A program made the position numbers and the translations under genes. Below, one piece after another: positions 4,016-61,750 of a stretch of DNA of 64,000 nt. The notes under the pieces are model-generated. The model was not told where the DNA came from and searched no databases. It saw only the letters and a program-made list of their open reading frames with translations. Every line of letters begins with the position of its first letter. Positions within the stretch are counted from its first letter, which is position 1. This stretch comes from a virus, in IMG/VR virus record IMGVR_UViG_3300010352_001565, positions 115,055 through 179,054 of that record; one strand, given 5' to 3'.

Positions 4016-4041
4016 GTCTCAAAAATAGTTGCAAATAAATG

Positions 4042-4069: not shown

Positions 4070-4075
4070 GCCATC

Positions 4076-4438: not shown

Positions 4439-4441
4439 TTT

Positions 4442-4714: not shown

Positions 4715-4717
4715 TTT

Positions 4718-5032: not shown

Positions 5033-5037
5033 GTAGT

Positions 5038-5301: not shown

Positions 5302-5304
5302 TTT

Positions 5305-5619
5305 ATGCCACAGCCATACCTAACCAATCTCAGGGTCAAGAAAGGTCCGCACGGGTGGATCGAGCTTGAAGACTGCAGTGTCCAGGTGGCACAGGCTAGC
5401 GGAGTCATGCGCGAGGACCGAGACGAGACTCAGGCTCGAATCATCCAGTGCATCAACGCCTGCGCCGGAATGCCAGATCCTGTCGCGGACATTCGAAGAC
5501 TCATGGAGGAAAATCGTCGGCTGCGTGAGATGGAGCGCCGCCTTCCAAATGCGGACTCGTCTGACCCCACCCAAGAATTCTGCGATCCGCCTCCCGGCAT
5601 ACAACCGTATGGTATTTGA
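5305..5619 (+). CDS. hypothetical protein
   Basis: 104-aa ORF, TAATTTATGCC start context. Confidence 0.45.
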   Translation: MPQPYLTNLRVKKGPHGWIELEDCSVQVAQASGVMREDRDETQARIIQCINACAGMPDPVADIRRLMEENRRLREMERRLPNADSSDPTQEFCDPPPGIQPYGI

Positions 5620-5935
5620 AAAAGAAGGAAAGAACGTCATCGTCACCGGGCTAGGAAACGGTGACAAGTTCAACATCTCTGAAACTCCGATGCGCGGCAA
5701 GCGCATCTACCGGGTGTGGACCATCTTGGATCGGACCAAGCTCTTGACGCGCTACTGCGACGGCAAACCGTACACCGTTGGAATCAAGGACGCGAATCCG
5801 ATTCACTGGACGAACGCATTCATTGAGGACTGCGTTCACGACTGGACGGTGCGTGGCGACCTTTTCATCTTTCACGCCCACTCGTCATACAAAGGACAAC
5901 AAATCGACCTGCTTATTCAGCTCTACGAGGAATGA
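5609..5935 (+). CDS. hypothetical protein (internal ATG of ORF 5366..5935)
   Basis: Upstream part of ORF 5366 overlaps gene 5305 in another frame; first non-overlapping ATG at 5609 (MVFEKEG..). Confidence 0.4.
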   Translation: MVFEKEGKNVIVTGLGNGDKFNISETPMRGKRIYRVWTILDRTKLLTRYCDGKPYTVGIKDANPIHWTNAFIEDCVHDWTVRGDLFIFHAHSSYKGQQIDLLIQLYEE

Positions 5936-6447
5936 AATACTTTACCGCAATTGCCGCAATGACCCAGGATCGCGTTATAGGCAACGGGGATGCGATACCA
6001 TGGAAGATCAAAGAAGAGTTGGCGTGGTTCAAACGGGTAACAATGGGCCATGCTCTGGTAATGGGCCGGAAGACCTACGAGTCCATCGGGAAACCTCTTC
6101 CAGGTCGCGACACACTCGTATTATCTCGCGCCGGGCGCTGCGGTTTACCGGAGACTCCGAATGGAGTCAAGGTCATCACGTGCCTCGAGTGCGTCAACCC
6201 GAATGACACCTGCAAGACCGTCTTCATCTGCGGAGGCGAGCAGATTTACCGGCAGGCTCTCCCGTATTGCCTCGATCTCTATTTGACCATCGTGCACCGT
6301 TCGTACGAAGGCGACAAATTTTTCCCGAAGTTCGAGCACCTTTTCAAGCGGGTTGAGACGGTAGGAAAGTTCGACGAGTTCACCATCTACCACTACAGAA
6401 ATCTCGCTCCCAGAAACCCACCACGGCTTCAAGGCACAGGTTCTTAA
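5932..6447 (+). CDS. folA: dihydrofolate reductase
   Basis: N-terminal IAAMxxxRVIGxxxxIPW and downstream GRKTYESIG (DHFR NADPH/folate motifs); ~170 aa; ATGA overlap with upstream gene. Confidence 0.8.
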   Translation: MKYFTAIAAMTQDRVIGNGDAIPWKIKEELAWFKRVTMGHALVMGRKTYESIGKPLPGRDTLVLSRAGRCGLPETPNGVKVITCLECVNPNDTCKTVFICGGEQIYRQALPYCLDLYLTIVHRSYEGDKFFPKFEHLFKRVETVGKFDEFTIYHYRNLAPRNPPRLQGTGS

Positions 6448-11671: not shown

Positions 11672-11989
11672 ATGAAAAACGTAAATTCAGCCAATTTTGA
11701 AACCGAAGTCATCCAATCGAGCATTCCTGTCGTGCTCGACTTCTGGGCCGAGTGGTGCGGGCCGTGCAAGATGATGCTTCCGGTTCTTGAAGACCTCGAT
11801 CAGTACTACAAAGGACGCCTTGAGATTGCCAAGGTGAACATAGACGAAGACCAGACCTTGGCGTCGCAGTTCGGCATCCGCGCTGTTCCTACTCTGCTGG
11901 TCTTTAAAGGCGGAGTGGTGGTAGAGCAGACTGTCGGTCTGAAGAGCATCCGCGACCTGAAAGAGATCTTTGAACGCGTTACCAAATAG
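11672..11989 (+). CDS. trxA: thioredoxin
   Basis: WAEWCGPCKMM active site (WCGPC), ~105 aa thioredoxin fold length. Confidence 0.8.
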   Translation: MKNVNSANFETEVIQSSIPVVLDFWAEWCGPCKMMLPVLEDLDQYYKGRLEIAKVNIDEDQTLASQFGIRAVPTLLVFKGGVVVEQTVGLKSIRDLKEIFERVTK

Positions 11990-13271: not shown

Positions 13272-13672
13272 TGGGCAACAAGGTTGACAACCACGAAGGA
13301 AAGCCACCGGTCGTAGGAACCGGCATGCCCACTAGCCTATACCTTGAAGAGTTCGGCTCACAGGTGTGGGCAGCTTTTGGAGAACCTCCCTATCTTGTTG
13401 GATCCGCCCTATTTGGCAAGCAGTGGCGCGACGTTGACATTAGGCTCATCCTGGACGACAAGGAGTATGAACGCCTGGGTCTTGGAGATCCTGAGCTACC
13501 GCATCATAACGGGAAGTGGGTCTCGCTGTGCATGGCATACGCAGCTCTCGGAAAGCAGATGACTGGCCTTCCGATTGACTTCCAGATTCAACAGATGACG
13601 CACGCTAACAAGAAGTTCGCAGGCGGGCGTTCTGCCATCGGGTTTGTTTCCCTGAGGATAGTTAAGGAGTGA
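13265..13672 (+). CDS. hypothetical protein
   Basis: 135-aa ORF. Confidence 0.4.
   Translation: MVMGNKVDNHEGKPPVVGTGMPTSLYLEEFGSQVWAAFGEPPYLVGSALFGKQWRDVDIRLILDDKEYERLGLGDPELPHHNGKWVSLCMAYAALGKQMTGLPIDFQIQQMTHANKKFAGGRSAIGFVSLRIVKE
13659..13671 (+). promoter_or_regulatory. late-type motif TAGTTA-N4-GTG
   Basis: gaTAGTTAaggaGTG directly at start of 1410-aa gene. Confidence 0.5.
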
Positions 13673-16600: not shown

Positions 16601-17901
16601 TCGAAGCTTTCCTGAAGGGCTATTTTGGAACTTCTTTTAGCACTCCTGAGACCAACTACTGGCTGGCCCAAGCATCTCCAGTTCAGGCTCCAGCTCAGGC
16701 TGCTCCGGAGGCTCCTCAGCCAAAAGAAGCGCTTCACAAGCTCACACTCCATCTTCCGGGATACGGGATTGAGCACGCAATAAACTGGTCAGCGCATTTC
16801 GACTGCAAGGCTGAGGATCTTGGAGATGGATCCATACGGTTCACCGGAAATACAGAAGGAATGAAGAAGCTCATCCAAGCGCACCTCGCGAACCGACCTC
16901 AGAAAGTCCCGGAACTTTACGCCAAAGCTGAGCCGCCGATTCCAAGCAGCGACTATTTGGGGGATGGACCGCTTGGCCAATACTCTTACAGCACTAGGGA
17001 TGACAAGTATGCGTATGTTGATGTAAACTGCACGCAAGGCGTCGCAAACTCGGTGTGCGGAAAGTATAACTGTCACGTTCATGTCGGGTCAACTATCCGC
17101 ATATACGGAACTCCTTACCAAATTGAGCTGCTAGTCGGAGCTTACAGCGACATGCTGTCAGGAACGCTGTCTGCGCAAGGGGATCCCTCCAAGCTTAAGA
17201 TTGAGTACACTGAGGCGAGTGAGGTGATTGTGGACTTCTTCAACGGAGACGGGACTATCGCATACGTTGGGAACAAGAATGGATGCGCCGTTTACCACGT
17301 TGGAAACAAGAAATACAGGGTTGTTGGTCCTAAGGGTCTCGTGCACACCGCGCTTAACGAGCTGTTCGACGAGCCCACTGCGGCTAAGCTTGCTAAGGAA
17401 GTCGTTCCTGCGGGGTCAACACCGACAGCCTCAGCGAACAAGAAAAGCACGAGCAGCGCCTCGAGTGACGGCCCTAAATCTCCGTGGATGCGCTACTTCG
17501 GAGATTCGTTTGAAGTCCCTGACCAGCTGTGGACGCATCCCCAAGTCAAAGATTCGTCGAGCACGCCGGATCCGTGCCCGTCATTCATGCTCAAAAACAA
17601 CTTTGCCGTGATAATGTGGGTTGCGCATCCCGATAAAGAGAAGCGCGACACTTTTACAGACCGCTTCACGGTGACAGACGGCGGCCACAAGCCCGCTTAC
17701 GCGGGAGAAGATTTTGAAGCGGCATTCTCCGCCTTTTTAAGCTATCTTCCGAAGAAGCGCAAAAAGGCGGAGCCTGAGCAAAAGCCTGAAGAGCCGAAGT
17801 TTGATCCTCCGTTTGATCCGCCTCCTGGAACTGTAGAAAATGACGGACCGAGCGACGAAGGCGAGAAGCCAGATCCGACAGGTGGAAAACCCCCGGCATA
17901 G
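13669..17901 (+). CDS. large (1410 aa) protein, N-terminal ~450 aa paralogous to gene 49588; probable virion-associated
   Basis: GTG start after late motif; N-terminal blocks (SVTYRLP.SKNVLF.DFY.., FLSICAEIRHL, DHVFDMQHNTGTVLNKV) near-identical to 49588; C-terminal half holds ~5 repeats of a ~60-aa HHGC/.FTG module. Confidence 0.6.
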   Translation: MISRALLKNIVNESVTYRLPTSKNVLFFDFYTLAFLNTLILDPTAKGSRAAFTQRDNVTHDIEYAENLLVPHLRKELMDATFLSICAEIRHLYDNTQDEKKMQQIVQSSVFRKYTRKYAELRSFSGLGAGAQQYSNGGKQGAVANDIHPRRIRTKFEGSHNAYTVSMKAALWAIKKSGQSAREFVTLCRYAFDNLRWSSSYGGRAWANICEGWLMLQDSQSDNIRRAIVNIDHVFDMQHNTGTVLNKVKEYAVNGGYGWLSAGLDFKAHATSPYLLVDKCSSDMRKLARMALKAAGYRDERMDAALADAEKMTSKTAPVDNVEWLEKWMKKSGQQFSNKHGVTLKKTVSDDAITGLVITGPAAAVNDAYSAFGAAVEYAKGTEGSPSWVGHSIDLDGKTWMIELAASHSKWTNWQAANIAANHGCTFTEKAGEMWQGNAVYYEFTGSKGAVESVIHAYAQGDHGKEMVVRKHMRPVDDNEIMSVECNAGAGSHEWADKHAETWLSAQGMNDVKATGTSSAVVFTGPKHKLEKIVKKFYSGYDTNTPGGSKPYVDASMQTMKPVLSDDDQGAVTLRSSGDLAYWTIHHGPNFEKKFGVKLTLKNDHAVVVAGPVGSIKKAIQDFYGSDAVMVSHLTKSIKKLPPLPKLPAAQSGDQQHSLTLSGGPPKGYDTMAKFAAHHGCTVDPAPNIVDGVPIWTVRGSAKSMSKLALSYCEGRGIAPESAAAHANNLLHHAKPPITPEMSGLTKPDKPAEKSDGAVYTGITKSHLSLTDAKGIAETYMCEINTVYASTGFTVYRITGHKAQASAVLSKLGNSTEYLNNFHQVTFASYKLKMYCSPHADTTDIEGYAQHRGVKVVIADQDQNTKQHFCEFTGGLEQLHDVIINLTTVHDPTTTAFKDIAQGGIAPLKSSKSAAKSGSDAAKLVIKGFKVAHSKEYAEYHIIPWADDLGVEFKINNRNKAGIGGGNYADLTGTKEALEAFLKGYFGTSFSTPETNYWLAQASPVQAPAQAAPEAPQPKEALHKLTLHLPGYGIEHAINWSAHFDCKAEDLGDGSIRFTGNTEGMKKLIQAHLANRPQKVPELYAKAEPPIPSSDYLGDGPLGQYSYSTRDDKYAYVDVNCTQGVANSVCGKYNCHVHVGSTIRIYGTPYQIELLVGAYSDMLSGTLSAQGDPSKLKIEYTEASEVIVDFFNGDGTIAYVGNKNGCAVYHVGNKKYRVVGPKGLVHTALNELFDEPTAAKLAKEVVPAGSTPTASANKKSTSSASSDGPKSPWMRYFGDSFEVPDQLWTHPQVKDSSSTPDPCPSFMLKNNFAVIMWVAHPDKEKRDTFTDRFTVTDGGHKPAYAGEDFEAAFSAFLSYLPKKRKKAEPEQKPEEPKFDPPFDPPPGTVENDGPSDEGEKPDPTGGKPPA

Positions 17902-41106: not shown

Positions 41107-41114
41107 GCTTGTGT

Positions 41115-41996
41115 ATGCCAGATCAAAACAACACTGAACTCGTTACGACCGTCGGCGTCGAGATCGAGATGGAAAACACACGGAATGTCAACTCAGATGT
41201 CCGTTTCATCTCTGACAAGCTCTCCCGTGCCGGTCTCAACTGGGTCGTTAAAACAGACGCTTCTTGCGGCCGCTCTGGAGCGGGAGTTGAGCTAAACTCT
41301 CCCATTCTGCGCACCGACGCTGATCTCAATTCTGTGTCGAGAGTCTGCGAAATGATGGATGAACTTGGTTATAAGGTGACGAAGAAATGCGGGTTGCACG
41401 TCCATATCGACGTCCGCCGTCTCACTGAGGACGAGAGAAACCGCCTTATCCGCTTCTTTGTCCAATACCAAGACTGCTTCTTTGAGCTCGCTCCTGGACG
41501 CCGCGCGGTGCACTACTGCGCGCCGCTGACGGCAGACGTGCTTGCTAAGCTGCGGCAAAACCGCGGTTGGTCTGCGTGGTCTACCCGCTATTTCTGGATG
41601 AACGGGTGCGCTTACACGGAACACGGCACTGTTGAGTTCCGCCTGATGAGTGGCAGCCTCAACCCGAATCATGTGACTGGATGGGTCAACTTCTTGCTTT
41701 ATGTCTATGACAAGGTTGTGAACCACGGAGCTTTCGGAGACGCCACATTCTTCCATCCAGATGCTTCGACTGGACGCGACTGCTTTGACAAAATGCTGCA
41801 CGTCACTGGACTTGACAACCTCGAGGTTGAAGGTCGAGCTGAAGTTGCTCGCAGCTGGGTGACCGCTCGCTGGGACGACGCTCACTCAGATGTCCAGTCA
41901 ATTCGCGCCGAACGACGCCGCCGCCTCCAAGCTGCTTGGCGCGGTGAAGCCCCGTATGTGAAAATCGTATCGCCTAACACCACAATGGCTGACTAG
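41115..41996 (+). CDS. glutamine-synthetase-fold amidoligase (Amidoligase_2/GCS2-like), paralog A
   Basis: TVGVEIEM first strand, GLHVHIDV, VEFRLMSGSLN; same three blocks in genes 43378 and 56981; ORF track start 41109 is alternative upstream codon. Confidence 0.6.
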   Translation: MPDQNNTELVTTVGVEIEMENTRNVNSDVRFISDKLSRAGLNWVVKTDASCGRSGAGVELNSPILRTDADLNSVSRVCEMMDELGYKVTKKCGLHVHIDVRRLTEDERNRLIRFFVQYQDCFFELAPGRRAVHYCAPLTADVLAKLRQNRGWSAWSTRYFWMNGCAYTEHGTVEFRLMSGSLNPNHVTGWVNFLLYVYDKVVNHGAFGDATFFHPDASTGRDCFDKMLHVTGLDNLEVEGRAEVARSWVTARWDDAHSDVQSIRAERRRRLQAAWRGEAPYVKIVSPNTTMAD

Positions 41997-42303: not shown

Positions 42304-42822
42304 TTGGTCATGCTGTCACGGCGTGTTCTTCTGCTCATGAGCAGACTCTACGCTTTGAGCAAAATAATCTCGTTCCATGACTTGCGCACCTGGAGATCTC
42401 ACCAAGCCGGAAAGGTGGTCGCGACCAATGGAGTCTTCGACATACTTCACGCCGGTCACTGCTCATATCTTCAGCAGGCAAAAGAGCTCGGAGACCGCCT
42501 TGTCGTAGGAATCAACAGCGACTTCGCCGTCAAGTCCCTTAAAGGACCGGCACGCCCAGTAAACTCCCAAGACCACCGCGCCCAGGTACTTGCAGCTCTC
42601 GAGTGCGTTGACGCAGTTTGCATTTTCGACAGCACAAACGCTTCCCTATTTCTTATGCTTGCCGACCCGACCATCTGGGTGAAGGGAAGCGACTACAATA
42701 TCGACAAGGTGAATAAAGAAGAGCGGGATGTGCTTCAGAGCCTCGGGACTGAGATCAAATTCATTCCTTTAGTGGTCGGACTTTCAACAACTTCAACCAT
42801 CGCCAAGATCAATGGACTTTAA
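42304..42822 (+). CDS. sugar-1-phosphate nucleotidyltransferase, RfaE domain II/HldE-like (ADP-heptose synthase-type)
   Basis: TNGVFDILHAGHCSYLQQAKELGDRLVVGINSD..VKSLKG..RPVN..R..VLAALE.VD.V..F...KG.DY parallels RfaE-II FTNGCFDILHAGHVSYL..A..LGDRLIVAVNSD.S.KRLKG..RPVN; HxGH motif. Confidence 0.7.
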   Translation: MVMLSRRVLLLMSRLYALSKIISFHDLRTWRSHQAGKVVATNGVFDILHAGHCSYLQQAKELGDRLVVGINSDFAVKSLKGPARPVNSQDHRAQVLAALECVDAVCIFDSTNASLFLMLADPTIWVKGSDYNIDKVNKEERDVLQSLGTEIKFIPLVVGLSTTSTIAKINGL

Positions 42823-43381
42823 GAAGGATCCGAAGTGCGCCCCGATCGAAATGCGCCGAGATGTGGAGCACCTGGTTGAGATGATCTACACCAACCTGAA
42901 GCAGCCGTATGCATCAATCTGGATCTCCCAGGTGACCCTCCTGGCTCCTCGGTGCAACACAACTAAGCTGTGCAAGGCCATGACATTCTGGATCCTTAAC
43001 GAGCTTACTGGGATGGTCGATTCAATTCGCGCTAGACGCCTAAAAAGGACGATTGCGTTTTACTACAAAATCCATACATCCGAGGCGGCGCACTGCAAGG
43101 CGCTTGTTCATCGGAAAACAAAGAAAGCGGCTCTCCGGTCCAGGGGATACGCCCAGAAGTTCGCCGTTCAGGCCATGGCGTTTGCAATTAAAAACGGGTA
43201 CCGCTCATCAGCCCAGGCTCTTAGGGCGTGCATGCTGTCGCGAATCGCGGTCCGCTCAGGGTCTAAGAAGCACTATCAGCTCAGGCCACATCTTGCTCCT
43301 CACACAGATCCGTTCGGATGCTACACCCATGCCGCCGTAACACTTCTGGTGATGCTTAACCGCTTTGTAGTTAAGCAGTGA
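42812..43381 (+). CDS. hypothetical basic protein
   Basis: 189-aa ORF. Confidence 0.4.
   Translation: MDFKKDPKCAPIEMRRDVEHLVEMIYTNLKQPYASIWISQVTLLAPRCNTTKLCKAMTFWILNELTGMVDSIRARRLKRTIAFYYKIHTSEAAHCKALVHRKTKKAALRSRGYAQKFAVQAMAFAIKNGYRSSAQALRACMLSRIAVRSGSKKHYQLRPHLAPHTDPFGCYTHAAVTLLVMLNRFVVKQ
43368..43380 (+). promoter_or_regulatory. late-type motif TAGTTA-N4-GTG
   Basis: tgTAGTTAagcaGTG. Confidence 0.45.
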
Positions 43382-44373
43382 ACGCCAGACGCGAAATTTG
43401 CAATCTGTTTGAGGACGCTGATCTCAATCTTGGCAGCGTTGGAATTGAGATCGAGATGCTTGCCAGGAAGGACTTGGTTGCAAACCGAGAGCTTGAAGCA
43501 GTTGTCCGCCAGCTCGATTTCACGTACGGGTTCGACGATTCTGTCACTCCAATGGCAGGAAGCCTTGAGGAGCTTTACACAAACGTTGAAATCTCAATCG
43601 GTCCTGATAGGTGGGACTGGATCTCCAAGCGGTTGATGAAGATGCTGGCGTACCTCAAGCACGAGGACTACGTCGCGGTTTCTCGAAAGCACTCAAACAG
43701 CCCTGTCTCAATTTCAACTGAAACGGATCTCTACTCTGATGGCGCAAAGAAAATCAGGCTCGCAAGAGCAAGGGTCCCTCAAAATTTCTCCGCCGGAGTT
43801 CACATCCACTTCGACGCCAACAGCTGGTTTTCAGGAACAGAGCACGCAGCTCGGTTTGTCAAGGTGCTAAATCGCTGGATTGAAGATGTTCCGAGACACC
43901 TGCCAGTTCAGCGTTACGGAAACGACGGCGAGCGAGGCCACGAGTTCGCCAGGATCCAAGGTTATCACGAATTGAACGGGGACAACTGGGGATCAGGATA
44001 CATCAAGCCAGCGGAGTATTTCCACAGAATAGGAAAGAATGTTGACAGGTTCATGGCGCTCAACGTTAAACCAGCTCTGAAACGCGGCGACATTGAGTTC
44101 AGATTCATGCACGGAACTCTCAACTACGCAACAATCGCGGGTTGGTTTGAAACCCTGGCAGAGCTTATGACATACGCGCAGCGCGAGCATGGAGGGTTTT
44201 CGGACTTCGTAGCTTGGTCTGCAAAGAAAGCTCCTGAGACCAAGAAGTTCATCGAGAAATCGTACAAGCTGAGCAAGGCGTCAAAAGAGCCGATCAGAAT
44301 TTCCCCATCAAGAGCCGCTAAAAAGATCCTCAATCCGCGGGCGGCTGACGCGCCTGTGTCAAACCCGGCATAA
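43378..44373 (+). CDS. GS-fold amidoligase, paralog B
   Basis: SVGIEIEM, GVHIHFDAN, IEFRFMHGTLN. Confidence 0.6.
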   Translation: MNARREICNLFEDADLNLGSVGIEIEMLARKDLVANRELEAVVRQLDFTYGFDDSVTPMAGSLEELYTNVEISIGPDRWDWISKRLMKMLAYLKHEDYVAVSRKHSNSPVSISTETDLYSDGAKKIRLARARVPQNFSAGVHIHFDANSWFSGTEHAARFVKVLNRWIEDVPRHLPVQRYGNDGERGHEFARIQGYHELNGDNWGSGYIKPAEYFHRIGKNVDRFMALNVKPALKRGDIEFRFMHGTLNYATIAGWFETLAELMTYAQREHGGFSDFVAWSAKKAPETKKFIEKSYKLSKASKEPIRISPSRAAKKILNPRAADAPVSNPA

Positions 44374-49580: not shown

Positions 49581-49590
49581 TTAGGGGGTG
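49578..49590 (+). promoter_or_regulatory. late-type motif TAGTTA-N4-GTG (TAG is stop of upstream gene)
   Basis: gcgTAGTTAgggGGTG. Confidence 0.5.
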
Positions 49591-51444
49591 AGCTCAGCCA
49601 AAGCACTGCTCGAAGGCCTTGTACAGGAGTCGGTAACGTACCGACTTCCAGCGTCTAAAAACGTCCTGTTTTACGATTTCTACGCCCTCGCCTATCTTCA
49701 GAGCCTTCAACTCGATCCTGAAGCGAAAGGTTCAGACTCTTTCAAAGGAGCTTCTCAAACGTCGTTCACTACCAGAGACTCTGTTTCGCGCGATGTTGAA
49801 CACGCTGCTGGGGTGCTAATTCCGTACCTTAGAAAAGAGCTTAGTAACGCCACCTTCTTGAGCATCTGCGCCGAGATCCGGCACCTGTTTGACAACCATC
49901 AAAGTCCAGAGTTCTGGCAGACGATGACGAATCACCGCCTGTTCAGGTTGTACGCGAGGAAGCAGGCGGAGGCTGTTAGTAGCATATCAAACCTTCCAGG
50001 AGTCAACCGTCCAGTTAGGACACCTCCCGTTTCAGGAACTCAGCCAGGATACGACAAGGCCATGAAAGCGGCCATCTGGGCCATCAAGAAAGGTGGCTCC
50101 ACGATGGGCGAGTTTGTCAGGCTGGCTAGGTATGCGTTCCAGCGCGGTCACTGGAGCTCGTCATACGGCGGTAAGGCGTGGGCTAACATCTGCGATGGAT
50201 GGGAGATGCTCAACTCGGACAAGTCAAACGACCTCAAGTCTGCCGCTGTCGCGATAGACCACGTGTTCGACATGCAGCACAACACGGGCACGGTGCTCAA
50301 CAAAGTCCAGGAGTATGCAATCAACGGCGGCTATGGCTGGCTTTCAGGAGCGTTGAACTACAAGGCAAGCGTTAAATCGATACATGCGCTCCTTGACAGG
50401 TGCTCGAGTGACATGCGCAAACTTTCTAAGGTGGCGTTGAAATCAGCTGGAATACCTGATGAGCACGAGCCTCCTCCGAAGACTCTCAAGCTTGCTGGGT
50501 ATAACGCACAGCCTCCTGACCCTCCGTTGCACGGCAAAGTTGGAGTGGTAGACTCCGCAGGAAACTTCCAGACCACCGCCATAAACCTTACCGGAAGATT
50601 CAAATTCCCGGAAGGAGCGATCGGAAACATTGACGCTCCCGCATGCACGGTTATCAGCGGACCTATAACGTTCCCTGAAAAGTGCAAGAGGCTTTACTTT
50701 CCGAATCTCGTAGCAGCGTCGTTTGACATCGTGTTTCCTCACGAGTGCGAGACCATCAGCATGCCGCGCATTCAACATCCTCACTTTAAAAATCTCCCAT
50801 TTAAGTGCCAAGACTTAAATTTTCTTGGCGCTCTAAGCTTACCGTCGGGATTCGCATTTCCAAAAGTGTGCGGCGACGTCTATCTGAAAAGCTTGAAGCA
50901 CTTTCCGATGAATGTGGTATGGCCAGAAAAGTGCGGCTCTTTTCATCTTGACAGCATGAAAAGCGAAGAGCTTTTGAAGTTCGAAAACCTTCCACAAGCA
51001 CACTTTCTATGCCAGGACAAAATGGTGAACGGGATAGCTCAGGTGGCGCCTAAAGGAGACGAGCCCAAAACTGAAAAGACGCCTCACTGGGTTAAGGAGT
51101 TCGGACCTGAGTACGCTGTTCCTATTGAGCTATACAACAACTCTGATTTTGTGGATGGCTCGTGGCACAACGATGCATGCCCTAGTTTTTACTACCACCT
51201 GAGCGAAGACCTTATAATTTACTGCGAGCACCCTGATCCAGACAAGCGCGAAGATACCTGCAGCGCAAGGTTCACGGCGTGCAGTACCAACGAGTTCTCA
51301 GGCTTTGTTACTTTCTACGAAGGGGACGACGTGCGACGCGCCATGGAAGCGATCAAGAAGGCGTACAAAGAAGGACCACCGAAACAGCAGGAACCGCCAA
51401 GCCAAGAGCCTCCGGCTGGACCCAACCTAAACATCAAAATCTAG
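49588..51444 (+). CDS. 618-aa paralog of gene 13669 N-terminal module, with C-terminal Cys-containing leucine-rich-type repeats
   Basis: N-terminal ~450 aa collinear with 13669 (many identical blocks); C-terminus has repeated F(P)xxC..L..(I/V)..P units (BspA-type LRR-like). Confidence 0.6.
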   Translation: MSSAKALLEGLVQESVTYRLPASKNVLFYDFYALAYLQSLQLDPEAKGSDSFKGASQTSFTTRDSVSRDVEHAAGVLIPYLRKELSNATFLSICAEIRHLFDNHQSPEFWQTMTNHRLFRLYARKQAEAVSSISNLPGVNRPVRTPPVSGTQPGYDKAMKAAIWAIKKGGSTMGEFVRLARYAFQRGHWSSSYGGKAWANICDGWEMLNSDKSNDLKSAAVAIDHVFDMQHNTGTVLNKVQEYAINGGYGWLSGALNYKASVKSIHALLDRCSSDMRKLSKVALKSAGIPDEHEPPPKTLKLAGYNAQPPDPPLHGKVGVVDSAGNFQTTAINLTGRFKFPEGAIGNIDAPACTVISGPITFPEKCKRLYFPNLVAASFDIVFPHECETISMPRIQHPHFKNLPFKCQDLNFLGALSLPSGFAFPKVCGDVYLKSLKHFPMNVVWPEKCGSFHLDSMKSEELLKFENLPQAHFLCQDKMVNGIAQVAPKGDEPKTEKTPHWVKEFGPEYAVPIELYNNSDFVDGSWHNDACPSFYYHLSEDLIIYCEHPDPDKREDTCSARFTACSTNEFSGFVTFYEGDDVRRAMEAIKKAYKEGPPKQQEPPSQEPPAGPNLNIKI

Positions 51445-52267: not shown

Positions 52268-52771
52268 ATGAACACAAAGTGGTCGACGTTCGTGCGACTA
52301 GATCTTCAAGACAGAGACCTCAAAGGTCTTGGTGCAGCTGGGATCATTTCCCAGAAAGCAGATGAAACATGGGTCAACTCCACCTACATGGTGACCCTAA
52401 CCCGAGACGTTCCTGTTGGTCAAGGCTGGACATCCAAGATGATCCGGCTCACCATCAAGCGTCGCGACAAGAAACCCATCCATGACTGGCGCGACATGCA
52501 GCGCATCAAAAACGAGCTTGTCGGTGCTGAGCACGAAGCCATGGAAATGTTCCCTGCCGAGGAGCGCCTGGTAGACACTTCAAACGTCTTCTTCCTGTTT
52601 GTGTTCGCTGACCCAAAGGTTCGCTGGCCGTTCGGCTTCGCGACCAGGTGGGTCAACAACGTTTCGGAGAATGGAAGTGTCCAACGCCCATTCCCTCTCG
52701 ACGACATGCCAAAGGATTGCATGACCGCCGCGCAATATCAGGAATTCCGTGCAACGCAAAAGGAACAATGA
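52268..52771 (+). CDS. hypothetical protein
   Basis: 167-aa ORF, ATGA overlap with thyA. Confidence 0.45.
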
Positions 52772-53697
52772 AGCAATACCATGACCTCCTTCGCTTGATT
52801 CTCAACGAAGGAAAAATAACAACCGACCGCACTGGCACAGGCACGCAGTCTGTGTTTGGTGCTCAAGCCCGCTTTCCTCTGAAAGATGGCTTCCCACTTC
52901 TCACCACCAAGAAGCTTTACACGAAAGCTATCATCCACGAGCTTCTTTGGTTTATACGCGGGGTCGCAAAGCCAGGCGACCCGATGATGCTCAACTACCT
53001 GAAAGATAACGGCGTCACCATCTGGGATGAGTGGGCAGATGAAAACGGAAGCCTTGGCCGCGTCTACGGCGCCCAATGGCGAGATTGGATCGGCGTTGAT
53101 CCTAACACTGGAAGCGTGACGCATACCGACCAGCTCGATGCTTTGATCAAGCGCCTGATCAGTAAGCCAGACGACCGCCGCCTCATCGTCACTGCCTGGC
53201 AGCCTTCTGAGGTCCACTGCATGGGGCTCCCCTCGTGCCACTGCTTCTTCCAGCTGAAAGCGTATCCGCTGACGCTTGAAGAGCGGATCGCCGAATTCCA
53301 TCGCCGAAATCCTTCTGTCGACGCGTTTATCAGCAATGACTCTGACCTCGAGCGCTACGACATTCCGAAGCACAGTCTCGATCTTCAGCTATACCAGCGC
53401 AGCTGCGACACTTTCCTTGGCGTGCCATTCAACATTGCATCATACGCGCTGCTGACCATGATGATTGCCCAGGTCGCCAATATGATGCCCGGAACTTTCA
53501 TTCACACCTATGGTGACCTTCACCTGTATCTCAATCACATCGAACAGGCTAAGCTGCAGCTCACCCGCGATTGCCGCCCGCTTCCGAAGATGGTTATCAA
53601 CCCGAATGTCAAAGACATTAACCAGTTCACCTACGAGGACTTCAAACTCGAAGGATATGATCCCCACCCAACCATCAAAGGCGAAGTCTCTGTATAG
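52768..53697 (+). CDS. thyA: thymidylate synthase (canonical ThyA type)
   Basis: [16 protein letters not shown], catalytic LPSCHCFFQ (Cys), [21 protein letters not shown]; ORF 52648 trimmed to MKQYHDL with AAGGAA SD-like 4 nt upstream. Confidence 0.8.
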
Positions 53698-54075: not shown

Positions 54076-54891
54076 ATGTCAAAACAATTCTTCGCGCTAA
54101 ACGACGGGTCAAACCCTCTTGCTTGTAACCTAACAGAGTTGAACGCCGCTGAGTCGGTCGATAATGGCTTCATGAGCCACAACGACTGGATCGCCCACGT
54201 TAACCGTTATGCTTACACCGGCAAGGTCATCCAGAAATCAAAACCTGGCACGATCCTTGACGTGGGATGCGGAAAGCTCCAGCTTCCGTACTACCTGTGG
54301 CGCAACCGCCTACATCTGGAAGAAAACGGGTCCTACTGGGGTATCGAACTCCGCGCCAAGCAGGCGTGGCTTGAACCGATCAACTGGAAGACCAGCATGA
54401 ATCTCATCAAGGCTGACATCATTCTTGACGAGATCAACGAAGACAACATTGAATTCTGGCCTGGCCAGTTCGACCTTGTCACCTGCTTCGAGACGTGGGA
54501 GCACGTTCCGCGCGACAAAGCCATCATTCTGGCCGAGCGCTTGTTCAACTGGACGAAGCCAGGAGGAATCCTGTTGTTCAGCTCTCCGAATGCCGGAGTG
54601 TCCGATTCAACGGCTGACAACCACACGGACGCAGAAGGCGAAAGCCGCGAGTGGGAGATGGAGTCGAAGATTGAAGTTCTCGAAGACGCTGGATTCAGCC
54701 TGCACGAGAACTTTGGAACGTTTTGCGGCATCACTCGCCTTCCTGAGGAGTTCCAGGAGCGCCTGCGCACCGACGCCTTGCTGATCCAGGCGAAGAAGTT
54801 CCTGAACCACGCAAACTTCACGGCGCTTGTGGCCGCGGCATACCCGCAGTTCAGTAACAACAGCCTGATGCACTTTGTGCGCAGAGCGTAA
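54076..54891 (+). CDS. class I SAM-dependent methyltransferase
   Basis: Motif I ILDVGCGKLQ, downstream DLVTCFETWEHV (motif II/III), Rossmann-MTase length. Confidence 0.6.
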   Translation: MSKQFFALNDGSNPLACNLTELNAAESVDNGFMSHNDWIAHVNRYAYTGKVIQKSKPGTILDVGCGKLQLPYYLWRNRLHLEENGSYWGIELRAKQAWLEPINWKTSMNLIKADIILDEINEDNIEFWPGQFDLVTCFETWEHVPRDKAIILAERLFNWTKPGGILLFSSPNAGVSDSTADNHTDAEGESREWEMESKIEVLEDAGFSLHENFGTFCGITRLPEEFQERLRTDALLIQAKKFLNHANFTALVAAAYPQFSNNSLMHFVRRA

Positions 54892-55091
54892 TGTTTAAAG
54901 TTCAGTTCATAGACTCAGTCCCACGGTGGGCGAACGACGCCCGGTATTTTGCGCGAGGTCCTAGCGGTCCTTATAGCCAGCGCGAGATTCACCGGGTGTT
55001 TCGCCGCCGTGGGTTTTTTCCGATTGGTAGAGAAGTGTTCGACAGCGAGTCGAGCACAAAAAGGTTGGTAGCAAAGCTAGTCCCAGCGTAA
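54891..55091 (+). CDS. hypothetical small protein
   Basis: 66-aa ORF. Confidence 0.25.
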   Translation: MFKVQFIDSVPRWANDARYFARGPSGPYSQREIHRVFRRRGFFPIGREVFDSESSTKRLVAKLVPA

Positions 55092-55093
55092 TC

Positions 55094-56107
55094 GTGAAAG
55101 CAAAGTTGTTTTTGGTAGATGGAGCAGACGGAACCGGAAAATCTACCCTTGCAGAGGAGATCCGGAGACAGACAGATGGAGTCATCCTTCACCAGAGTTA
55201 CCGCTGGCGCGACATGATGTTTGTCTACCACACAGCCGCCCTCCACTTCGCCGAAAAGTTCATCGCTAAAGGAAAGACGGTCATCCTCGACCGCCACTGG
55301 CCGTCAGAGATGGTATATGGTAAAGTGTTCAGGAACGGATCCCGTTGGCCTCTTGAAGGACGCATGATGGACCGAGTCATACTCAAGATGGCAGGAACGT
55401 ATATCTTCACCCTTGGAGATCCAGAGGCCATCGCCAAGCGCCATGCCCAGCTTCAGTGCGTCCGAAGGGAAGAGTATTCGCACTCGATTTCTCAAGTAGC
55501 CACAGAATACAACAACCTATTTTATGGGTTTCCGCACAAAGTTGCCAAAGACCACGCCGAATTTATTGCAAGCACCGGAGGCTTCATACACAGGAAAGAT
55601 GCGTTCGCTTATCGTATGGAGATCGAAGGACAGGATGTCTGCGGTTTTGTTGAAGCTCTGATAAACAAGGCTGGAAAATACACCGCAGTGCAGTATCAGC
55701 CAGCTCTTCAGTCCCGATTTCGAAATGTGCTAGGCCACATCGAGTCTGCTCGCTTTCTAATCGTCGGTGACGAGGCAAACCCGAAGATGAACCACATCTT
55801 TTGGCCGTTTCATGACTACGGTCACTCTAGCTTGTTTTTGGCCCGCACCTTGCACAACATCAACTTCCGCGAAGAAGATGCGATGTGGACCAACGTGAAT
55901 CACTCTGACCATGCTGACGCGCACATTCGCGCAATACTAGAGATGAAACCACTCCGCGTGGTAGCTCTCGGCAAGAATGCTGAAGCTGGATTGAAGAAGA
56001 TTGGGGTCAACGACTTTGTGACTGTCAGGCACCCGCAAGCGGCAATGCGATTTTCGTCGCTTTCGGATGTGTCTTACAAGGACGAATTGAGCCGAGCATT
56101 GTTCTAA
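55094..56107 (+). CDS. fusion of P-loop (d)NMP-kinase-like domain and UDG-superfamily-fold domain (5-hmdU DNA kinase / aGPT-Pplase-like candidate)
   Basis: GTG start; N-terminal LVDGADGTGKST (Tmk-like P-loop) and ILDRHW lid region; C-terminal VGDEANPK..WPF.D.G..SLFLARTL (cf. UDG family-4 motif A GEAPG..E...G.PF.G..G.LL) and RHPQAAMR (cf. motif B HPSPL). Confidence 0.55.
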   Translation: MKAKLFLVDGADGTGKSTLAEEIRRQTDGVILHQSYRWRDMMFVYHTAALHFAEKFIAKGKTVILDRHWPSEMVYGKVFRNGSRWPLEGRMMDRVILKMAGTYIFTLGDPEAIAKRHAQLQCVRREEYSHSISQVATEYNNLFYGFPHKVAKDHAEFIASTGGFIHRKDAFAYRMEIEGQDVCGFVEALINKAGKYTAVQYQPALQSRFRNVLGHIESARFLIVGDEANPKMNHIFWPFHDYGHSSLFLARTLHNINFREEDAMWTNVNHSDHADAHIRAILEMKPLRVVALGKNAEAGLKKIGVNDFVTVRHPQAAMRFSSLSDVSYKDELSRALF

Positions 56108-56112
56108 TAGGA

Positions 56113-56928
56113 GTGCAAAAATTTAGAACCCCGAGCGAGGCTTATTTGGCTGTCCTCGCCGACGTTGTAGACAACCCAGAATACCGCGTTTCTCCACGCG
56201 GGCAGCCGATAGCCGAGAAGACAGACTACTCGTTTGAGGTAGCTCTCCCAGATGCAAGCCCGATCGTCACCCGTTCAGAGTCCCGCAACAAAACCATTGC
56301 CGACTACACCCACAAGGAGTTTGAGGTTTACGAGAGCGGATCTCGCAGAGTTGAGGATTTCGCGAAGATCAGCAGCTTCTGGAAATCACTCGCAAATCCA
56401 GATGGAACGATCAACTCGTCTTACGGACACTTGATCTTCAAAAACCAGTCGTGCGGAAATCCAACGTACGAAGTTCAGCGCAAGTTTCTGAACGAGCACG
56501 ACGGCAATGGCGGATCGGAAGGAGTGAACCTCAGCGAGCTTGAGCGAACACCATGGGAGTGGGCTTCCGAGTCTCTCATCCAGGACAAAGATACCCGCCA
56601 AGCCATCATGCACTTTAACCTTCCTGAACACTGTTGGGTCGGCAACCGTGACGTCACATGCACGATGCATGGAATCTTCCAGATACGCCAGGACAAACTC
56701 AACCTCTCAGTGGTCATGCGGTCAAATGACGTCGTTCTTGGTCTCGTATTCGATCTACCATGGTTCATGCACCTGATCGACAGGATGGTCGCAGCGCTGA
56801 AGCCAACGTATCCTGCCCTCACAAAAGGCCACTACCGCCACATGGCGCACTCAATGCACGTCTACGGACGCGACATGGAAAAGGTGAATATGATGCTCGG
56901 CAGGGGTATGCTCAGCGGCGCTCAGTAA
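56113..56928 (+). CDS. divergent thymidylate-synthase-family paralog (pyrimidine hydroxymethylase candidate)
   Basis: GTG start; DVTCTMHGIFQ aligns to ThyA PCHAFFQ (Cys retained); VVMRSNDVVLGLVFDLPWFMHL aligns to [23 protein letters not shown]; far more divergent than thyA at 52768. Confidence 0.55.
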   Translation: MQKFRTPSEAYLAVLADVVDNPEYRVSPRGQPIAEKTDYSFEVALPDASPIVTRSESRNKTIADYTHKEFEVYESGSRRVEDFAKISSFWKSLANPDGTINSSYGHLIFKNQSCGNPTYEVQRKFLNEHDGNGGSEGVNLSELERTPWEWASESLIQDKDTRQAIMHFNLPEHCWVGNRDVTCTMHGIFQIRQDKLNLSVVMRSNDVVLGLVFDLPWFMHLIDRMVAALKPTYPALTKGHYRHMAHSMHVYGRDMEKVNMMLGRGMLSGAQ

Positions 56929-56980: not shown

Positions 56981-57961
56981 ATGAACGCTGTACTACCAGT
57001 CACGGTCGGTTTTGAGCTTGAGTTTGGCTCGCCGAACCAGCAGATACTTTCTGTGATTGCCGACGCCATGGCGAGGAACAACTACCCCGTCACCAACTTC
57101 GGCCGCTGGCGCCACACTCCTGCCAACCCATCAACGTGGGATCTCAAAACCGATTCGAGCTGCGGATACCGCGAAGGCGTGGGCGGGTTTGAAGTTGTGA
57201 GCCCCGTGATTCGCACGTACGACGAGCTCGTGCACGCCGTCAAGGTTGCCAACATCGTCACCCGTTGTGGCGGAAGTGCGAATCGCCGCTGCGGTCTGCA
57301 CGTCCACATCGGGTTTCGCCAGTTCAACACTCCCGAAATTCGGGAGCGCCTGTTTCGATTTCTGTCTCGCTACGAGGAGGCATTCTACATGCTCGTTCCA
57401 GAAACCCGCCGCAACAACCCCTACTGCAAACCGATGAACGTGCGAATCATCGAGTCGGTTAAAGCGAAGCATGGGCGCGTTGACGTGGGAATGGCATGGC
57501 AAGACAAGAACACCTGGATCAACTTCGCGACTCTGAACCGCATCGGCACCGTAGAGTTTCGCTTCATGGAAGGAACTCTCGACCCAAATCTCATCCTCAA
57601 CTATGTGATGTTCCTCGTCCATGTTATGGACACGATTATCGCTGGGAAGCGGGTGTCCTGGGGTCGCGCCAGCGCCAAGAGCAACCGCATGCTGTTTTTC
57701 ACCATGCTGCAGCAGCTCAATCTCTACGGAAAGAAATCCAAGTCGCAAGACGAAGACCGCGCCAAGACAGTTCGAAAATGGACGGTCAAGAGGTTTGCCG
57801 CGTTCAACCCAAATCCAAATCAGCCTCGGCAAGAGCTGACGGGTCGCGCAGAAGACCGTCCTGCTTTGACTGAAGCAGACATTGCGAACCGCGCACAGGC
57901 TGAGGCCGTCCCAACACCAGCGCCCGCCAACCCGGGTCAACCTAATGGAGGTGTGCAATGA
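56981..57961 (+). CDS. GS-fold amidoligase, paralog C
   Basis: TVGFELEF, GLHVHIGFR, VEFRFMEGTLD. Confidence 0.6.
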   Translation: MNAVLPVTVGFELEFGSPNQQILSVIADAMARNNYPVTNFGRWRHTPANPSTWDLKTDSSCGYREGVGGFEVVSPVIRTYDELVHAVKVANIVTRCGGSANRRCGLHVHIGFRQFNTPEIRERLFRFLSRYEEAFYMLVPETRRNNPYCKPMNVRIIESVKAKHGRVDVGMAWQDKNTWINFATLNRIGTVEFRFMEGTLDPNLILNYVMFLVHVMDTIIAGKRVSWGRASAKSNRMLFFTMLQQLNLYGKKSKSQDEDRAKTVRKWTVKRFAAFNPNPNQPRQELTGRAEDRPALTEADIANRAQAEAVPTPAPANPGQPNGGVQ

Positions 57962-60202: not shown

Positions 60203-61750
60203 ATGATCGATTTAAAGCGCGTAACATACTTCCTTGCAGACGGCCGTCCAGTAACTGACAGCTTCATTCGAAATGTCACAAAGCTCGTTGACACCGCGAG
60301 AAAGCACTTCAACTTCAGCGCTGTTAAAATCGGGTGTCCAACCGATCCAAAAATACCAGGAGCCGAATGGGTCGAAACTCCGGTGATGCTCAATCTTGAT
60401 GCGTACAGCAGATTTTGCTTGTATGAGATGGCCGACCATGTAGACTCAGAGTTTGTGCTGGTCTTTCAGGAGGATGGTTTCATCGTCAACCCTGACACCT
60501 GGGACGACAGCTTCTTGAACTACGACTATATCGGATCTCCGTGGCCGCAGCTCGGCATGAGAGTCGGAAACGGAGGATTCAGCCTTAGGAGCAAGCGCCT
60601 GCTCCAGGAGGTCAAGAAGCTCGGAGAGTTTGTTGGAAACGAGGACTGGATCATGTGCTTCCAGCTCAAAGATCAGCTCGAGAAAGCTGGGATGAAATGG
60701 GCTCCTCTAGAGGTAGCCCGTAAGTTCTCAATCGAGTATCCCGTTGATGACAGCCACCTTGTGTCGACCAGCTTTGGTCAGCACTCGCGCAGGCCTTCTA
60801 ACGTTCTGGGCGAGATCAGGCACCAGAACATTAGCGCCGAAGTTCGCGAGGTGCTAAACGACATCGTGGAGCTTGGGTACGCGGTATTTGACAGCGACGG
60901 CGCGTATCGGTACATTGCGCCAAAGGTAAATCTGTGGTCTGGCCGCTGGAGACAGATGTCGCAGTTTTTGCAGGGGCTCAACGGCGCTGGAAAGCTTTCT
61001 GGAGAGTTCTTTGTCTGCTTGTTCGACGGCTGGAGAGAGTACGCGCATCCGAGTGACGAGAAAGTCTTCGTGCCGTGGAGTTCAGTCGACAAGAGCTTGT
61101 TCCTTGGAAAAGGAACGTGTGAAGAGCCGCGGTTTGTGCATGCCTGCCAAGACACGAACATTTTTCCAATCATGCCACATCCGGTCATCGCGTTCAACCG
61201 CCACACCGACGACGCCAACACCCTAGTCATTCCTGACCCCGACTTTATAGACACTGGGTTCAAGGAATTCGCGAAGGAGGTTGCTGACAACGACATTCCA
61301 TGGGAGCGAAAAGTAGACCTGGCCATCTGGCGCGGAAGAAGGCACGTTTCAGACTACAAGGTTGATCCAGTTTTGCATGCGCGAGACAGAATCACGCGCC
61401 TAGACGATTCCCTCCTGAGCGCATCGTACTCGTACGACACACCTATTAGCGAGCAGCTCAAGTACAAGTTCATCGTTGACGTTGAAGGAACGACCTCGTC
61501 GTGGAGTGGGCTTTATTGGAAGCTCCTGTCCAACTCGCTGGTCATCAGGATCAAGTCACACTGGGAAAACTGGTATTCCTCTAGCCTAATCAACGGCGAA
61601 AATTGCGTGGTAACAACAATTGAGGACCTTCCAAAGTGCATCCGCTGGTGCGTAGACCACCCGGTCGCTTGCGAGCGCATGGCTGCCAACGGCACCAAGC
61701 TGGCCCGCAAGCTCAATTACCAGCACGCCATCGAGCGCTTCCCGCGCTGA
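60203..61750 (+). CDS. two-domain glycosyltransferase: DUF5672-like N-terminal domain + GT90 (CAP10-type) C-terminal domain
   Basis: N-terminal DGFIVNPDTWDDSFLNYDYIGSPWP..GNGGFSLRSK (DUF5672-like); C-terminal DLAIWRGRR .. KYKFIVDVEGTTSSWSGLYWKLLSNSLVIRI (GT90 signature KY..IDiDG...S.RL..LL.S.SVVL). Confidence 0.6.
   Translation: MIDLKRVTYFLADGRPVTDSFIRNVTKLVDTARKHFNFSAVKIGCPTDPKIPGAEWVETPVMLNLDAYSRFCLYEMADHVDSEFVLVFQEDGFIVNPDTWDDSFLNYDYIGSPWPQLGMRVGNGGFSLRSKRLLQEVKKLGEFVGNEDWIMCFQLKDQLEKAGMKWAPLEVARKFSIEYPVDDSHLVSTSFGQHSRRPSNVLGEIRHQNISAEVREVLNDIVELGYAVFDSDGAYRYIAPKVNLWSGRWRQMSQFLQGLNGAGKLSGEFFVCLFDGWREYAHPSDEKVFVPWSSVDKSLFLGKGTCEEPRFVHACQDTNIFPIMPHPVIAFNRHTDDANTLVIPDPDFIDTGFKEFAKEVADNDIPWERKVDLAIWRGRRHVSDYKVDPVLHARDRITRLDDSLLSASYSYDTPISEQLKYKFIVDVEGTTSSWSGLYWKLLSNSLVIRIKSHWENWYSSSLINGENCVVTTIEDLPKCIRWCVDHPVACERMAANGTKLARKLNYQHAIERFPR

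Follow-up and report, generated by a model that had tools for sequence, protein, structure and literature searches.

Phage T4 replaces cytosine by 5-hydroxymethylcytosine (5hmC) at a pre-replicative stage by means of gp42 (dCMP hydroxymethylase), gp1 (a deoxynucleoside monophosphate kinase), td and frd. In the 5-HMUDK and aGPT-Pplase systems of phages M6, ViI, PaMx11 and SH-Ab 15599, a P-loop kinase and a "glycosylase-like" protein accompany a ThyA-family hydroxymethylase; amidoligases sometimes co-occur, and domain fusions are known from metagenomes. The SP15-like family-A DNA polymerases of the modified-pyrimidine phages YerA41 and phiLo (PDB 9qhs) are fused to an active uracil-DNA glycosylase (UDG) that removes dU originating from residual dUTP (bioRxiv 10.1101/2025.03.26.645540). 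Here we analyze a locus in a 64,000-nucleotide stretch of viral DNA (IMG/VR record IMGVR_UViG_3300010352_001565, positions 115,055 to 179,054; "the window" below) in which one gene encodes a kinase domain joined to a UDG-fold module and the next encodes a ThyA-family paralog. We judge, with a probability of roughly 0.6, that this locus belongs to a phage cassette directed at cytosine and not at thymine, in which, as in T4, a cytosine modified at C5 is synthesized as a nucleotide and takes the place of the normal base.

The locus shares with T4 the gp42 residues at six positions of the ThyA paralog, an adjacent phage kinase, and the coexistence of a true thymidylate synthase (TS) with a dihydrofolate reductase (DHFR). 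A dCMP deaminase and a dCTPase-type nucleoside triphosphate pyrophosphohydrolase (NTP-PPase) occur in related cassettes, whereas the window has neither a dCTPase nor a deaminase. The window kinase is YorR/thymidylate kinase (TMPK)-like and not gp1-like, and it is fused to a UDG fold. Where T4 has glucosyltransferases, the cassette conserves a Methyltransf_23 protein, joined in the window by an amidoligase. The 5-HMUDK systems differ from the window in kinase family, in having an alpha-helical helix-hairpin-helix (HhH) protein with a Cys in place of an alpha/beta UDG fold, and in using a dUMP-type instead of a dCMP-type hydroxymethylase. In the SP15-like enzymes the partner of the UDG is a polymerase and in the window a nucleotide kinase. 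The phiLo UDG domain is among the closest structural neighbors of the window module, which is smaller; uracil excision has been demonstrated for the phiLo and YerA41 enzymes.

The gene singled out in a preliminary sequence-only reading of the window was present at 55094-56107 on the + strand, as a GTG-initiated open reading frame (ORF) of 337 aa. The GTG lies 2 nt past the stop of an upstream 66-aa ORF, and the 271-aa ORF of the ThyA paralog (56113-56928, + strand) starts 5 nt past the stop of the fusion gene. The fusion protein contains VDGADGTGKST (residues 8-18), IVGDEANPK...WPFHDYGHSSLFL (residues 223-250) and RHPQAAMRF (residues 312-320). The public gene call (P0001, 297 aa) begins at Met41 and loses the Walker A P-loop (affected part, window 55094-55213). 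Because 30 full-length homologs align from the GTG-start N-terminus, we take the 337-aa form to be the real one. AlphaFold2, run on an alignment of 31 family sequences, gave a very confident model (pLDDT 94.5, pTM 0.93). Foldseek searches against the PDB returned YorR, deoxyadenosine kinase and thymidylate kinases for the N-terminal half and family-4 UDGs (1l9g, 1ui1) and UdgX for the C-terminal half. Together with the profile match to YorR described below, these results bear out the proposal that a single polypeptide combines a TMPK-like P-loop kinase with a UDG-fold domain, and structure prediction for the C-terminal domain did find the UDG fold. The presence of that fold does not establish the channeling model that had been attached to it.

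The kinase half carries its P-loop at residues 10-18 (nt 55121-55147) and a DR motif at D66-R67 (nt 55289-55294). A single-sequence phmmer search of the fusion against PDB sequences gave just a marginal P-loop match, and profiles and structure prediction were therefore needed. With a kinase-domain profile, the best sequence match was YorR (PDB 2axp/3kb2; E = 2e-10, residues 3-144). YorR (BSU20280, SPbeta prophage) shares ILEGPD..KST and IIDRF.YS.LVYA with the kinase half but is a stand-alone protein of 173 aa without a UDG domain, and its PDB entry lists it as uncharacterized. The TIGR00041 dTMP kinase model matched the kinase domain at 1e-5, and Pfam Thymidylate_kin matched the fusion at a sub-threshold 3e-5. 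Conservation was high among 129 full-length representatives of the family (K16, 126/129; D12, 118/129; D66, 126/129; R67, 128/129; S71, 121/129; E72, 123/129; Y75, 128/129). The motifs kept are an EGxDGxGK[ST]T-type P-loop with an acidic residue and DR[HLW]WxSExxY. In thymidylate kinases, a free mononucleotide is touched at its sugar and phosphate by the P-loop Asp and the DRxxxSExxY residues. The P-loop (GxxGxGK[ST]T with the acidic residue), the DR(Y/H) motif and the nucleoside monophosphate kinase fold that characterize enzymes of the TMPK/deoxynucleoside kinase (dNK) type were all found in the kinase half.

The kinase had been supposed to act on 5-hydroxymethyluracil (5hmU) in DNA, an assignment that did not survive comparison with the 5-HMUDK family, of which M6 gp54, ViI gp67 and phiW-14 gp37 are the defining members. 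Neither of the 5-HMUDK Pfam models, PF18748 and PF18723, matched the window protein or any of the 31 family members (E <= 0.01-0.1). The positive controls, M6 gp54 against PF18748 (HMUDK_HMUD1, 5-hmdU DNA kinase) and M6 gp55 against PF18723 (HMUDK_hel), scored 7.7e-18 and 8e-56, respectively. An hhalign comparison of the fusion family with M6 gp54 was limited to a 25-column P-loop alignment. Membership of the kinase half in 5-HMUDK was excluded on these grounds, and the TMPK-type motifs and the best match to YorR point the same way.

The C-terminal half has the four-stranded parallel beta-sheet alpha/beta architecture of the UDG superfamily and is similar to known UDGs. In structural comparison it scored 10.7 with the Thermotoga maritima UDG and 10.6 with the UDG domain of the phiLo PolA-UDG fusion, followed by family 5 (9.3), MUG (9.0), SMUG (8.3), TDG (7.8) and vaccinia D4 (7.6). 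The Pfam UDG model matched residues 218-332 at 1.5e-3, which is sub-threshold. Motif A (G225-D226..N229-P230-K231, nt 55766-55786) is followed by W237-P238-F239, N267 lies at nt 55892-55894, and motif B (H313-P314-Q315..R319-F320) lies at nt 56030-56053. The water-activating motif A residue, stacking aromatic, recognition Asn and motif B His of a UDG pocket were all found at positions set by hidden Markov model (HMM) alignment to UdgX. In the full-length representatives, N267, H313 and R319 were invariant (129/129 each), while D/E226 was kept in 128/129 and F239 in 125/129. The sequence-only reading was right about the presence of motifs A and B but had called them remnants, a description that does not fit key residues kept in 125 to 129 of the 129 representatives.

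Family 4 UDG and UdgX are the best fold matches, and their G-[D/E] motif A, PF stacking residue, TN Asn, HP(S/Q) motif B and following Arg align with the module. In contrast with their ~190-210 aa, the window module spans ~135 aa, lacks the 4Fe-4S cysteines and the R-loop His of UdgX, and has xNPK in place of [AG]PG. It contains zero cysteines, and the family alignment shows no position with a conserved Cys, which implies a module without an Fe-S cluster. Family 4 in the strict sense has a 4Fe-4S cluster with four Cys and the motif GE[AG]PG; here motif A is G[DE]xxNPK, and with no conserved Cys the module falls outside that family. The module is what looks like a new minimal, cluster-free UDG family.

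The same domain had been put forward as an aGPT-Pplase. These proteins (now AADT/DADT) are alpha-helical and HhH containing, with an essential catalytic Cys and a metal site (PMC8989533; PMC13458397), and the UDG module does not have their fold. Besides the Cys, metal-binding Glu/Thr residues mark members of the family. PF18724 (ADDT) matched neither the window protein nor any of the 31 family members, and the control, M6 gp51, gave 1.4e-46. An hhalign comparison of the fusion family with M6 gp51 returned a probability of 1.7%. The different fold, the missing PF18724 match and the lack of a catalytic Cys rule out aGPT-Pplase membership.

The downstream ThyA homolog keeps its catalytic Cys context (C183 in "DVTCT," nt 56659-56661), as had been noted. 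Its best solved-structure matches were the MilA CMP hydroxymethylase (2e-13) and the T4 dCMP hydroxymethylase (2e-12), with TS at 2e-6, and its NCBIfam scores were far under the cut-offs. D180 (nt 56650-56652), D206 and D214 (nt 56752-56754) correspond to E. coli ThyA L143, D169 and N177. At positions 143/146/147/165/169/177 (E. coli numbering), ORF 56113 has D,C,T,M,D,D, identical to T4 gp42, whereas both the true ThyA of the window and E. coli ThyA have L,C,H,Q,D,N. The dCMP methylase of Xp12, a phage without the fusion, differs at three of these positions (N,C,P,L,D,D); in the M6 dUMP hydroxymethylase, residues 177, 147 and 165 are all Asn. The C-terminus is short, as in T4 gp42, with 20 residues past Y209 compared with 61 in Xp12 and 55 in E. 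coli ThyA. ORF 56113 thus lacks the N177, L143, H147, Q165 and C-terminal folate-closing tail of a thymidylate synthase and has the Cys146, N177D, L143D/E and retained D169 of a gp42-type dCMP hydroxymethylase.

In published work, N177D denotes a dCMP substrate, L143D/E a non-methyl product and D169N a 5-hydroxy-dCMP synthase (PMC13326640), and positions 177 and 147 were the top discriminators in MetaGPA (PMC8670742). Given the Asp at the E. coli Asn177 position and the match to gp42 at six discriminating positions, the predicted substrate is dCMP, and we predict from the alignment that ORF 56113 is a dCMP hydroxymethylase. The suspicion that it is of hydroxymethylase type and not a plain thymidylate synthase was thereby upheld. 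The gp42 pattern recurred in every ThyA paralog linked to the kinase family (12 loci, AXL3 and phage G). A 5-hydroxy-dCMP synthase of the RB69 gp48 type (D169N) was excluded, as the Asp (D206) is kept in the window and in all linked paralogs. The validated Xp12 dCMP methylase gene (L019:45326-46195, - strand) itself has a dCMP deaminase and a DHFR-like ORF as its neighbors, and N143, P147, L165 and D177 together may help to separate methylases from hydroxymethylases.

In 9/9 close-family contexts (the window, L001, L003, L004, L005 and L012-L015) and in phage PW916, the gene next downstream of the fusion encodes a gp42-type ThyA paralog. The annotated genes gp29 and gp28 of phage AXL3 overlap and are arranged likewise, and gp29 was confirmed as a fusion by the kinase (2e-28) and UDG (9e-21) profiles. 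The gene is unannotated in GenBank in PW916 (L008:2346-3236) and labelled "thymidylate kinase" in AXL3 (L018:3037-4020); the PW916 ThyA paralog is labelled a dUMP hydroxymethyltransferase despite its Asp at 177. No other annotated kinase gene was present in the annotated cassette regions of PW916 and AXL3 that were read. A distant kinase-UDG fusion, Bacillus phage G gp315 (L020:3414-4409; motif A "AQNPGG," motif B "HPAYVKRF"), lies beside an alpha-glucosyltransferase, a dCMP deaminase and a gp42-signature ThyA paralog (gp313, gp317 and gp319), with the paralog four genes away from the fusion; phage G may make glucosylated 5hmC. A megablast search with 8 kb of sequence against GenBank phages found no relative. 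One close relative of the window cassette (L012:1753-2919) lies on a contig encoding a tubulin/TubZ-like protein, as in some large phages.

The wider neighborhood also speaks for cytosine. In smaller phages, a MazG-type NTP-PPase, dCMP deaminase, ThyX and PolA follow the cassette, and the fusion lies inside a PRA-PH/ThyA/dCMP deaminase/PolA neighborhood in L004, L005, L013-L015, PW916 and AXL3. Such neighborhoods, with a ThyA carrying Asp177, are enriched in modified-cytosine viral contigs (PMC8670742; bioRxiv 10.1101/2024.12.05.627091). AXL3 genomic DNA resists 35/37 restriction enzymes and is cut by TasI and Tru1I alone, whose sites are A/T-only (PMC7504290), a digestion pattern consistent with C (or G), and not T, being altered throughout the genome.

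Methyltransf_23 orthologs (E values of 1e-12 to 1e-119) adjoin or lie near the fusion in L001, L003, L004, L012, L013, L015 and PW916, and one adjoins the unfused kinase of podovirus MW202510. AXL3 gp31, annotated as a methyltransferase, holds the same position in its cassette. In L013, a 660-aa protein (4022-6004) directly upstream of the kinase-UDG gene joins a C5 cytosine DNA methylase domain to Methyltransf_23, which hints that Methyltransf_23 works on or near cytosine in DNA. Amidoligase_2 orthologs with 40-45% identity directly follow the ThyA paralog in L001/L002 and L012, the closest relatives of the window.

The fusion family is large. There were 33 close full-length homologs, and a search with the UDG-module profile gave 2087 cluster representatives (clusters at 50% identity) at E <= 1e-3 and 1023 at <= 1e-10. 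Among the best-scoring matches listed, most were ~315-360 aa with the module C-terminal and beginning near residue 200, making the fusion the dominant architecture. These numbers and the near-invariant motifs of the 129 full-length representatives argue that the fusion is not a chance event. Several variants were found. Stand-alone UDG modules of 143-158 aa exist. In two metagenomic proteins of 255 aa (P0066 and P0070) the N-terminal domain has no P-loop and the UDG motifs are intact, which suggests that selection can maintain the UDG module by itself. A 456-aa metagenomic protein (P0151) fuses a MazG-like NTP pyrophosphohydrolase (PRA-PH, 1.7e-11), the kinase and the UDG module, tying the fusion protein to enzymes of the dNTP pool. 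In the corresponding cassette of MW202510 the kinase is a separate protein of 187 aa, indicating that it works without the UDG module, and in RsoM2USA the kinase-like and UDG-like genes lie far apart. An MW202510 ORF annotated as a "G:T/U specific DNA glycosylase" was considered as a stand-alone counterpart of the module but was unsupported by Pfam and by the module profile.

Database labels for the family are "thymidylate kinase" or "hypothetical." No description of a kinase-UDG fusion, or of the function of the cassette methyltransferase, was found in the literature searched; the pathway type, in contrast, is already known from T4 and the MetaGPA cassette. The kinase-UDG gene is not among the domains reported in the MetaGPA neighborhood studies, plausibly for want of an above-threshold Pfam match. 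The fusion is widespread yet invisible to Pfam-based neighborhood analyses.

Features of the window that form or surround the cassette are given in Table 1. The sequence-only reading had also placed a true thyA and a DHFR at other sites of the window, and both were confirmed. The 66-aa ORF upstream of the fusion had no homolog in Pfam or PHROG or by tblastn in the related loci, and it may or may not be a gene.

Table 1. Positions of the kinase-UDG fusion domains and associated genes (window coordinates)
Feature	Position	Strand	Evidence and remarks
N-terminal domain of fusion, YorR/TMPK-like P-loop (deoxy)nucleotide kinase	55094..55687	+	residues 1-198
C-terminal domain of fusion, minimal UDG-fold module	55688..56107	+	residues 199-337
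ThyA-family paralog, predicted dCMP hydroxymethylase (5hm-dCMP synthase)	56113..56928	+	Pfam Thymidylat_synt 7e-14
Class I S-adenosylmethionine (SAM)-dependent methyltransferase (Methyltransf_23)	54076..54891	+	Pfam 2.4e-11; weak UbiG-like match
66-aa ORF between methyltransferase and fusion	54891..55091	+	ORF list; translationally coupled to both
Amidoligase_2 (carboxylate-amine ligase-like)	56981..57961	+	Pfam 7e-21; directly downstream of ThyA paralog
Bona fide thymidylate synthase ThyA	52768..53697	+	Pfam 9e-102, full length; L143, H147, Q165, N177 like E. coli ThyA
Dihydrofolate reductase	5932..6447	+	Pfam DHFR_1 3.6e-43

On the cytosine-replacement reading, ORF 56113 would convert dCMP to 5-hydroxymethyl-dCMP (5hm-dCMP), as its active-site residues suggest, and the kinase half of ORF 55094 would convert 5hm-dCMP to the diphosphate, the job of gp1 in T4. 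Host nucleoside diphosphate kinase and the phage polymerase would then bring the modified nucleotide into DNA. A cognate deoxynucleoside monophosphate (dNMP) kinase is required to bring 5-modified dCMP into DNA (PMC13326640). Homology, obligatory adjacency, the unfused and MazG-fused variants and this pathway necessity make the kinase half most likely the cognate dNMP kinase for 5hm-dCMP, a predicted analogue of gp1. ThyA and DHFR would maintain the normal dTMP supply, with DHFR recycling the dihydrofolate produced by ThyA. The UDG module would flip and excise bases of the uracil type in phage DNA, either U that stems from residual dUTP or 5hmU formed by deamination of 5hmC. By analogy with the UDG-fused SP15-like polymerases, such excision would couple quality control with the enzyme that supplies the replisome with pyrimidine nucleotides. 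Action of the module on uracil-type bases (U or 5hmU) in phage DNA is most likely on this analogy, although it is the least certain step of the scheme. Methyltransf_23 and, in the clade of the window, Amidoligase_2 probably elaborate the base further; the conservation of both suggests that modification may go beyond 5hmC.

Several observations weigh against this scheme. A simple 5hmC pathway leaves the conserved methyltransferase and amidoligase unexplained. The enzyme roles in the cassette, among them the base specificity of the kinase, are all predicted. The kinase-half scores fall below the curated cut-offs of PF02223 and TIGR00041, which makes it a divergent branch that does not qualify as a dTMP kinase equivalog. 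The assignment of ORF 56113 as a hydroxymethylase and not a methylase depends on few, correlated positions, and the Asn143 of Xp12 is chemically close to Asp. Motif A of the UDG module past the acidic residue (xNPK) departs from GE[AG]PG, and its Pro is 41% conserved; glycosylase activity is for that reason not assured. Profiles built from the related loci found no MazG, dCMP deaminase or dUTPase in the whole window, and because these enzymes of the related cassettes are missing, a uracil-policing role rests on analogy.

Alternative explanations differ in the base, in the level at which the kinase acts and in the part played by the UDG fold. The sequence-only reading had favored thymine, with partial T replacement: a 5-hmU DNA kinase would channel phosphorylated hmU to an aGPT-Pplase-like transferase of UDG fold, and ORF 56113 would be a dUMP hydroxymethylase. 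A kinase, a glycosylase-like fold, a ThyA paralog and an amidoligase are superficially like a thymidine hypermodification cluster. 5-HMUDK has been reported fused to other enzymes of its pathway, as has the co-occurrence of amidoligases (PMC8989533), and 5-HMUDK is itself distantly TMPK/dNK-like, since M6 gp54 has weak PF02223 and PF01712 matches. However, aGPT-Pplases have an HhH and not a UDG fold, M6 gp54 aligns through the P-loop alone, 0/31 family members match PF18748, PF18723 or PF18724, and the module has no conserved cysteine. The Asp177 of the paralog points to dCMP, true TS and DHFR are retained, and AXL3, with the same cassette, has DNA that is cut at pure A/T sites. A true ThyA, a DHFR and a dCMP hydroxymethylase are the T4 arrangement and speak for cytosine replacement instead of partial replacement of T. 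Thymine hypermodification is already largely refuted by the family membership tests and is highly improbable. Also improbable, though less so, is a kinase acting on DNA, in which the UDG fold flips 5hmC (or hmU) and the kinase phosphorylates it, the 5-phosphomethyl pyrimidine being either the mark itself or an activated compound that the methyltransferase or amidoligase would take further. Such a scheme would parallel the 5-HMUDK pathway for cytosine, with other folds doing the work. It would account for tailoring genes that are otherwise unexplained, it sits well with the L013 fusion of Methyltransf_23 to a C5 DNA methylase and with a stable fusion that dominates the top family matches, and the AlphaFold2 model gives a confident, fixed inter-domain arrangement. 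Yet in the cassettes of MW202510 and RsoM2USA the kinase is not accompanied by the UDG, the features by which TMPK structures bind a free mononucleotide are kept, small phages would be left without any dNMP kinase for 5hm-dCMP, and the MazG triple fusion points to pool metabolism.

The remaining alternatives leave cytosine as the target. ORF 56113 could be an Xp12-type dCMP methylase that yields 5-methyl-dCMP and phage DNA with 5-methylcytosine. Of seven Asp177 ThyA homologs linked to a deaminase that the MetaGPA follow-up tested, five did make 5mdCMP (bioRxiv 10.1101/2024.12.05.627091), and the window has a DHFR, as is found beside the Xp12 enzyme. That DHFR is already accounted for by the true ThyA of the window, however, and both the D,T,M at 143/147/165 and the short C-terminus are those of gp42 and not of Xp12; we consider a methylase quite unlikely and a hydroxymethylase the better assignment. 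A UDG module without catalysis is unlikely, if somewhat less so: it might bind DNA or nucleotides, tether the kinase to the replisome or the hydroxymethylase (compare the T4 dNTP-synthetase complex) or sense pyrimidine nucleotides. Near-invariant Asn, His, acidic residue and stacking Phe across clusters at <=50% identity are more than a scaffold needs, and the module keeps its motifs after loss of the P-loop in P0066 and P0070 and also exists alone. With a similarly low likelihood, Methyltransf_23, the kinase-UDG protein and the dCMP hydroxymethylase (with Amidoligase_2 where present) might together make an undescribed cytosine derivative, for example a 5hmC that is O-methylated or elaborated in some other way and would be the AXL3 modification, with the UDG fold recruited for a new DNA-level activity. 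That activity could be base flipping for modification, or selective excision of unmodified or deaminated pyrimidines, and not ordinary uracil repair; the recruitment would resemble that of HhH glycosylase folds for aGPT-Pplases. T4-like replacement of cytosine, with the kinase acting on free 5hm-dCMP, remains the reading we prefer.

Other genes of the window may bear on DNA or small-molecule modification. Two further Amidoligase_2 genes (1.4e-18 and 5e-5) surround a cytidylyltransferase-like gene (2.5e-16) at 41109-41996, 42304-42822 and 43378-44373, and with the one in the cassette the window has three amidoligases, which may constitute a second module devoted to small molecules or to modification. 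A gene 2.2 kb downstream of the cassette (60203-61750), not found in related loci, encodes 515 aa with DUF5672 and Glyco_transf_90 matches; its product could be a glycosyltransferase acting on 5hmC DNA. Two proteins of 1410 and 618 aa (13669-17901 and 49588-51444) have a similar N-terminus (..ESVTYRLP.SKNVLF.DFY.LA.L..), no Pfam match, and look like paralogs. A thioredoxin-like ORF (11672-11989, WCGPC) and a patatin-like ORF (3093-3968, DGGGMKG) were recognized by their motifs.

The pathways by which phages replace cytosine provide anti-restriction strategies as well as enzymes for use in epigenetic sequencing. The present analysis reassigns a locus that resembles thymidine hypermodification to a probable T4-like cytosine pathway and identifies, by prediction, the "missing" cognate dNMP kinase in a cassette that has been linked experimentally to modified cytosines. 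That kinase is usually fused to a previously unrecognized, very small UDG-fold module, in a family of >2000 clusters at 50% identity. Cultured phages carry the fusion, among them AXL3, with its G/C-linked DNA modification, PW916 and, more distantly, Bacillus phage G. If the UDG module does have a new specificity, it would constitute a new glycosylase family and a possible tool.

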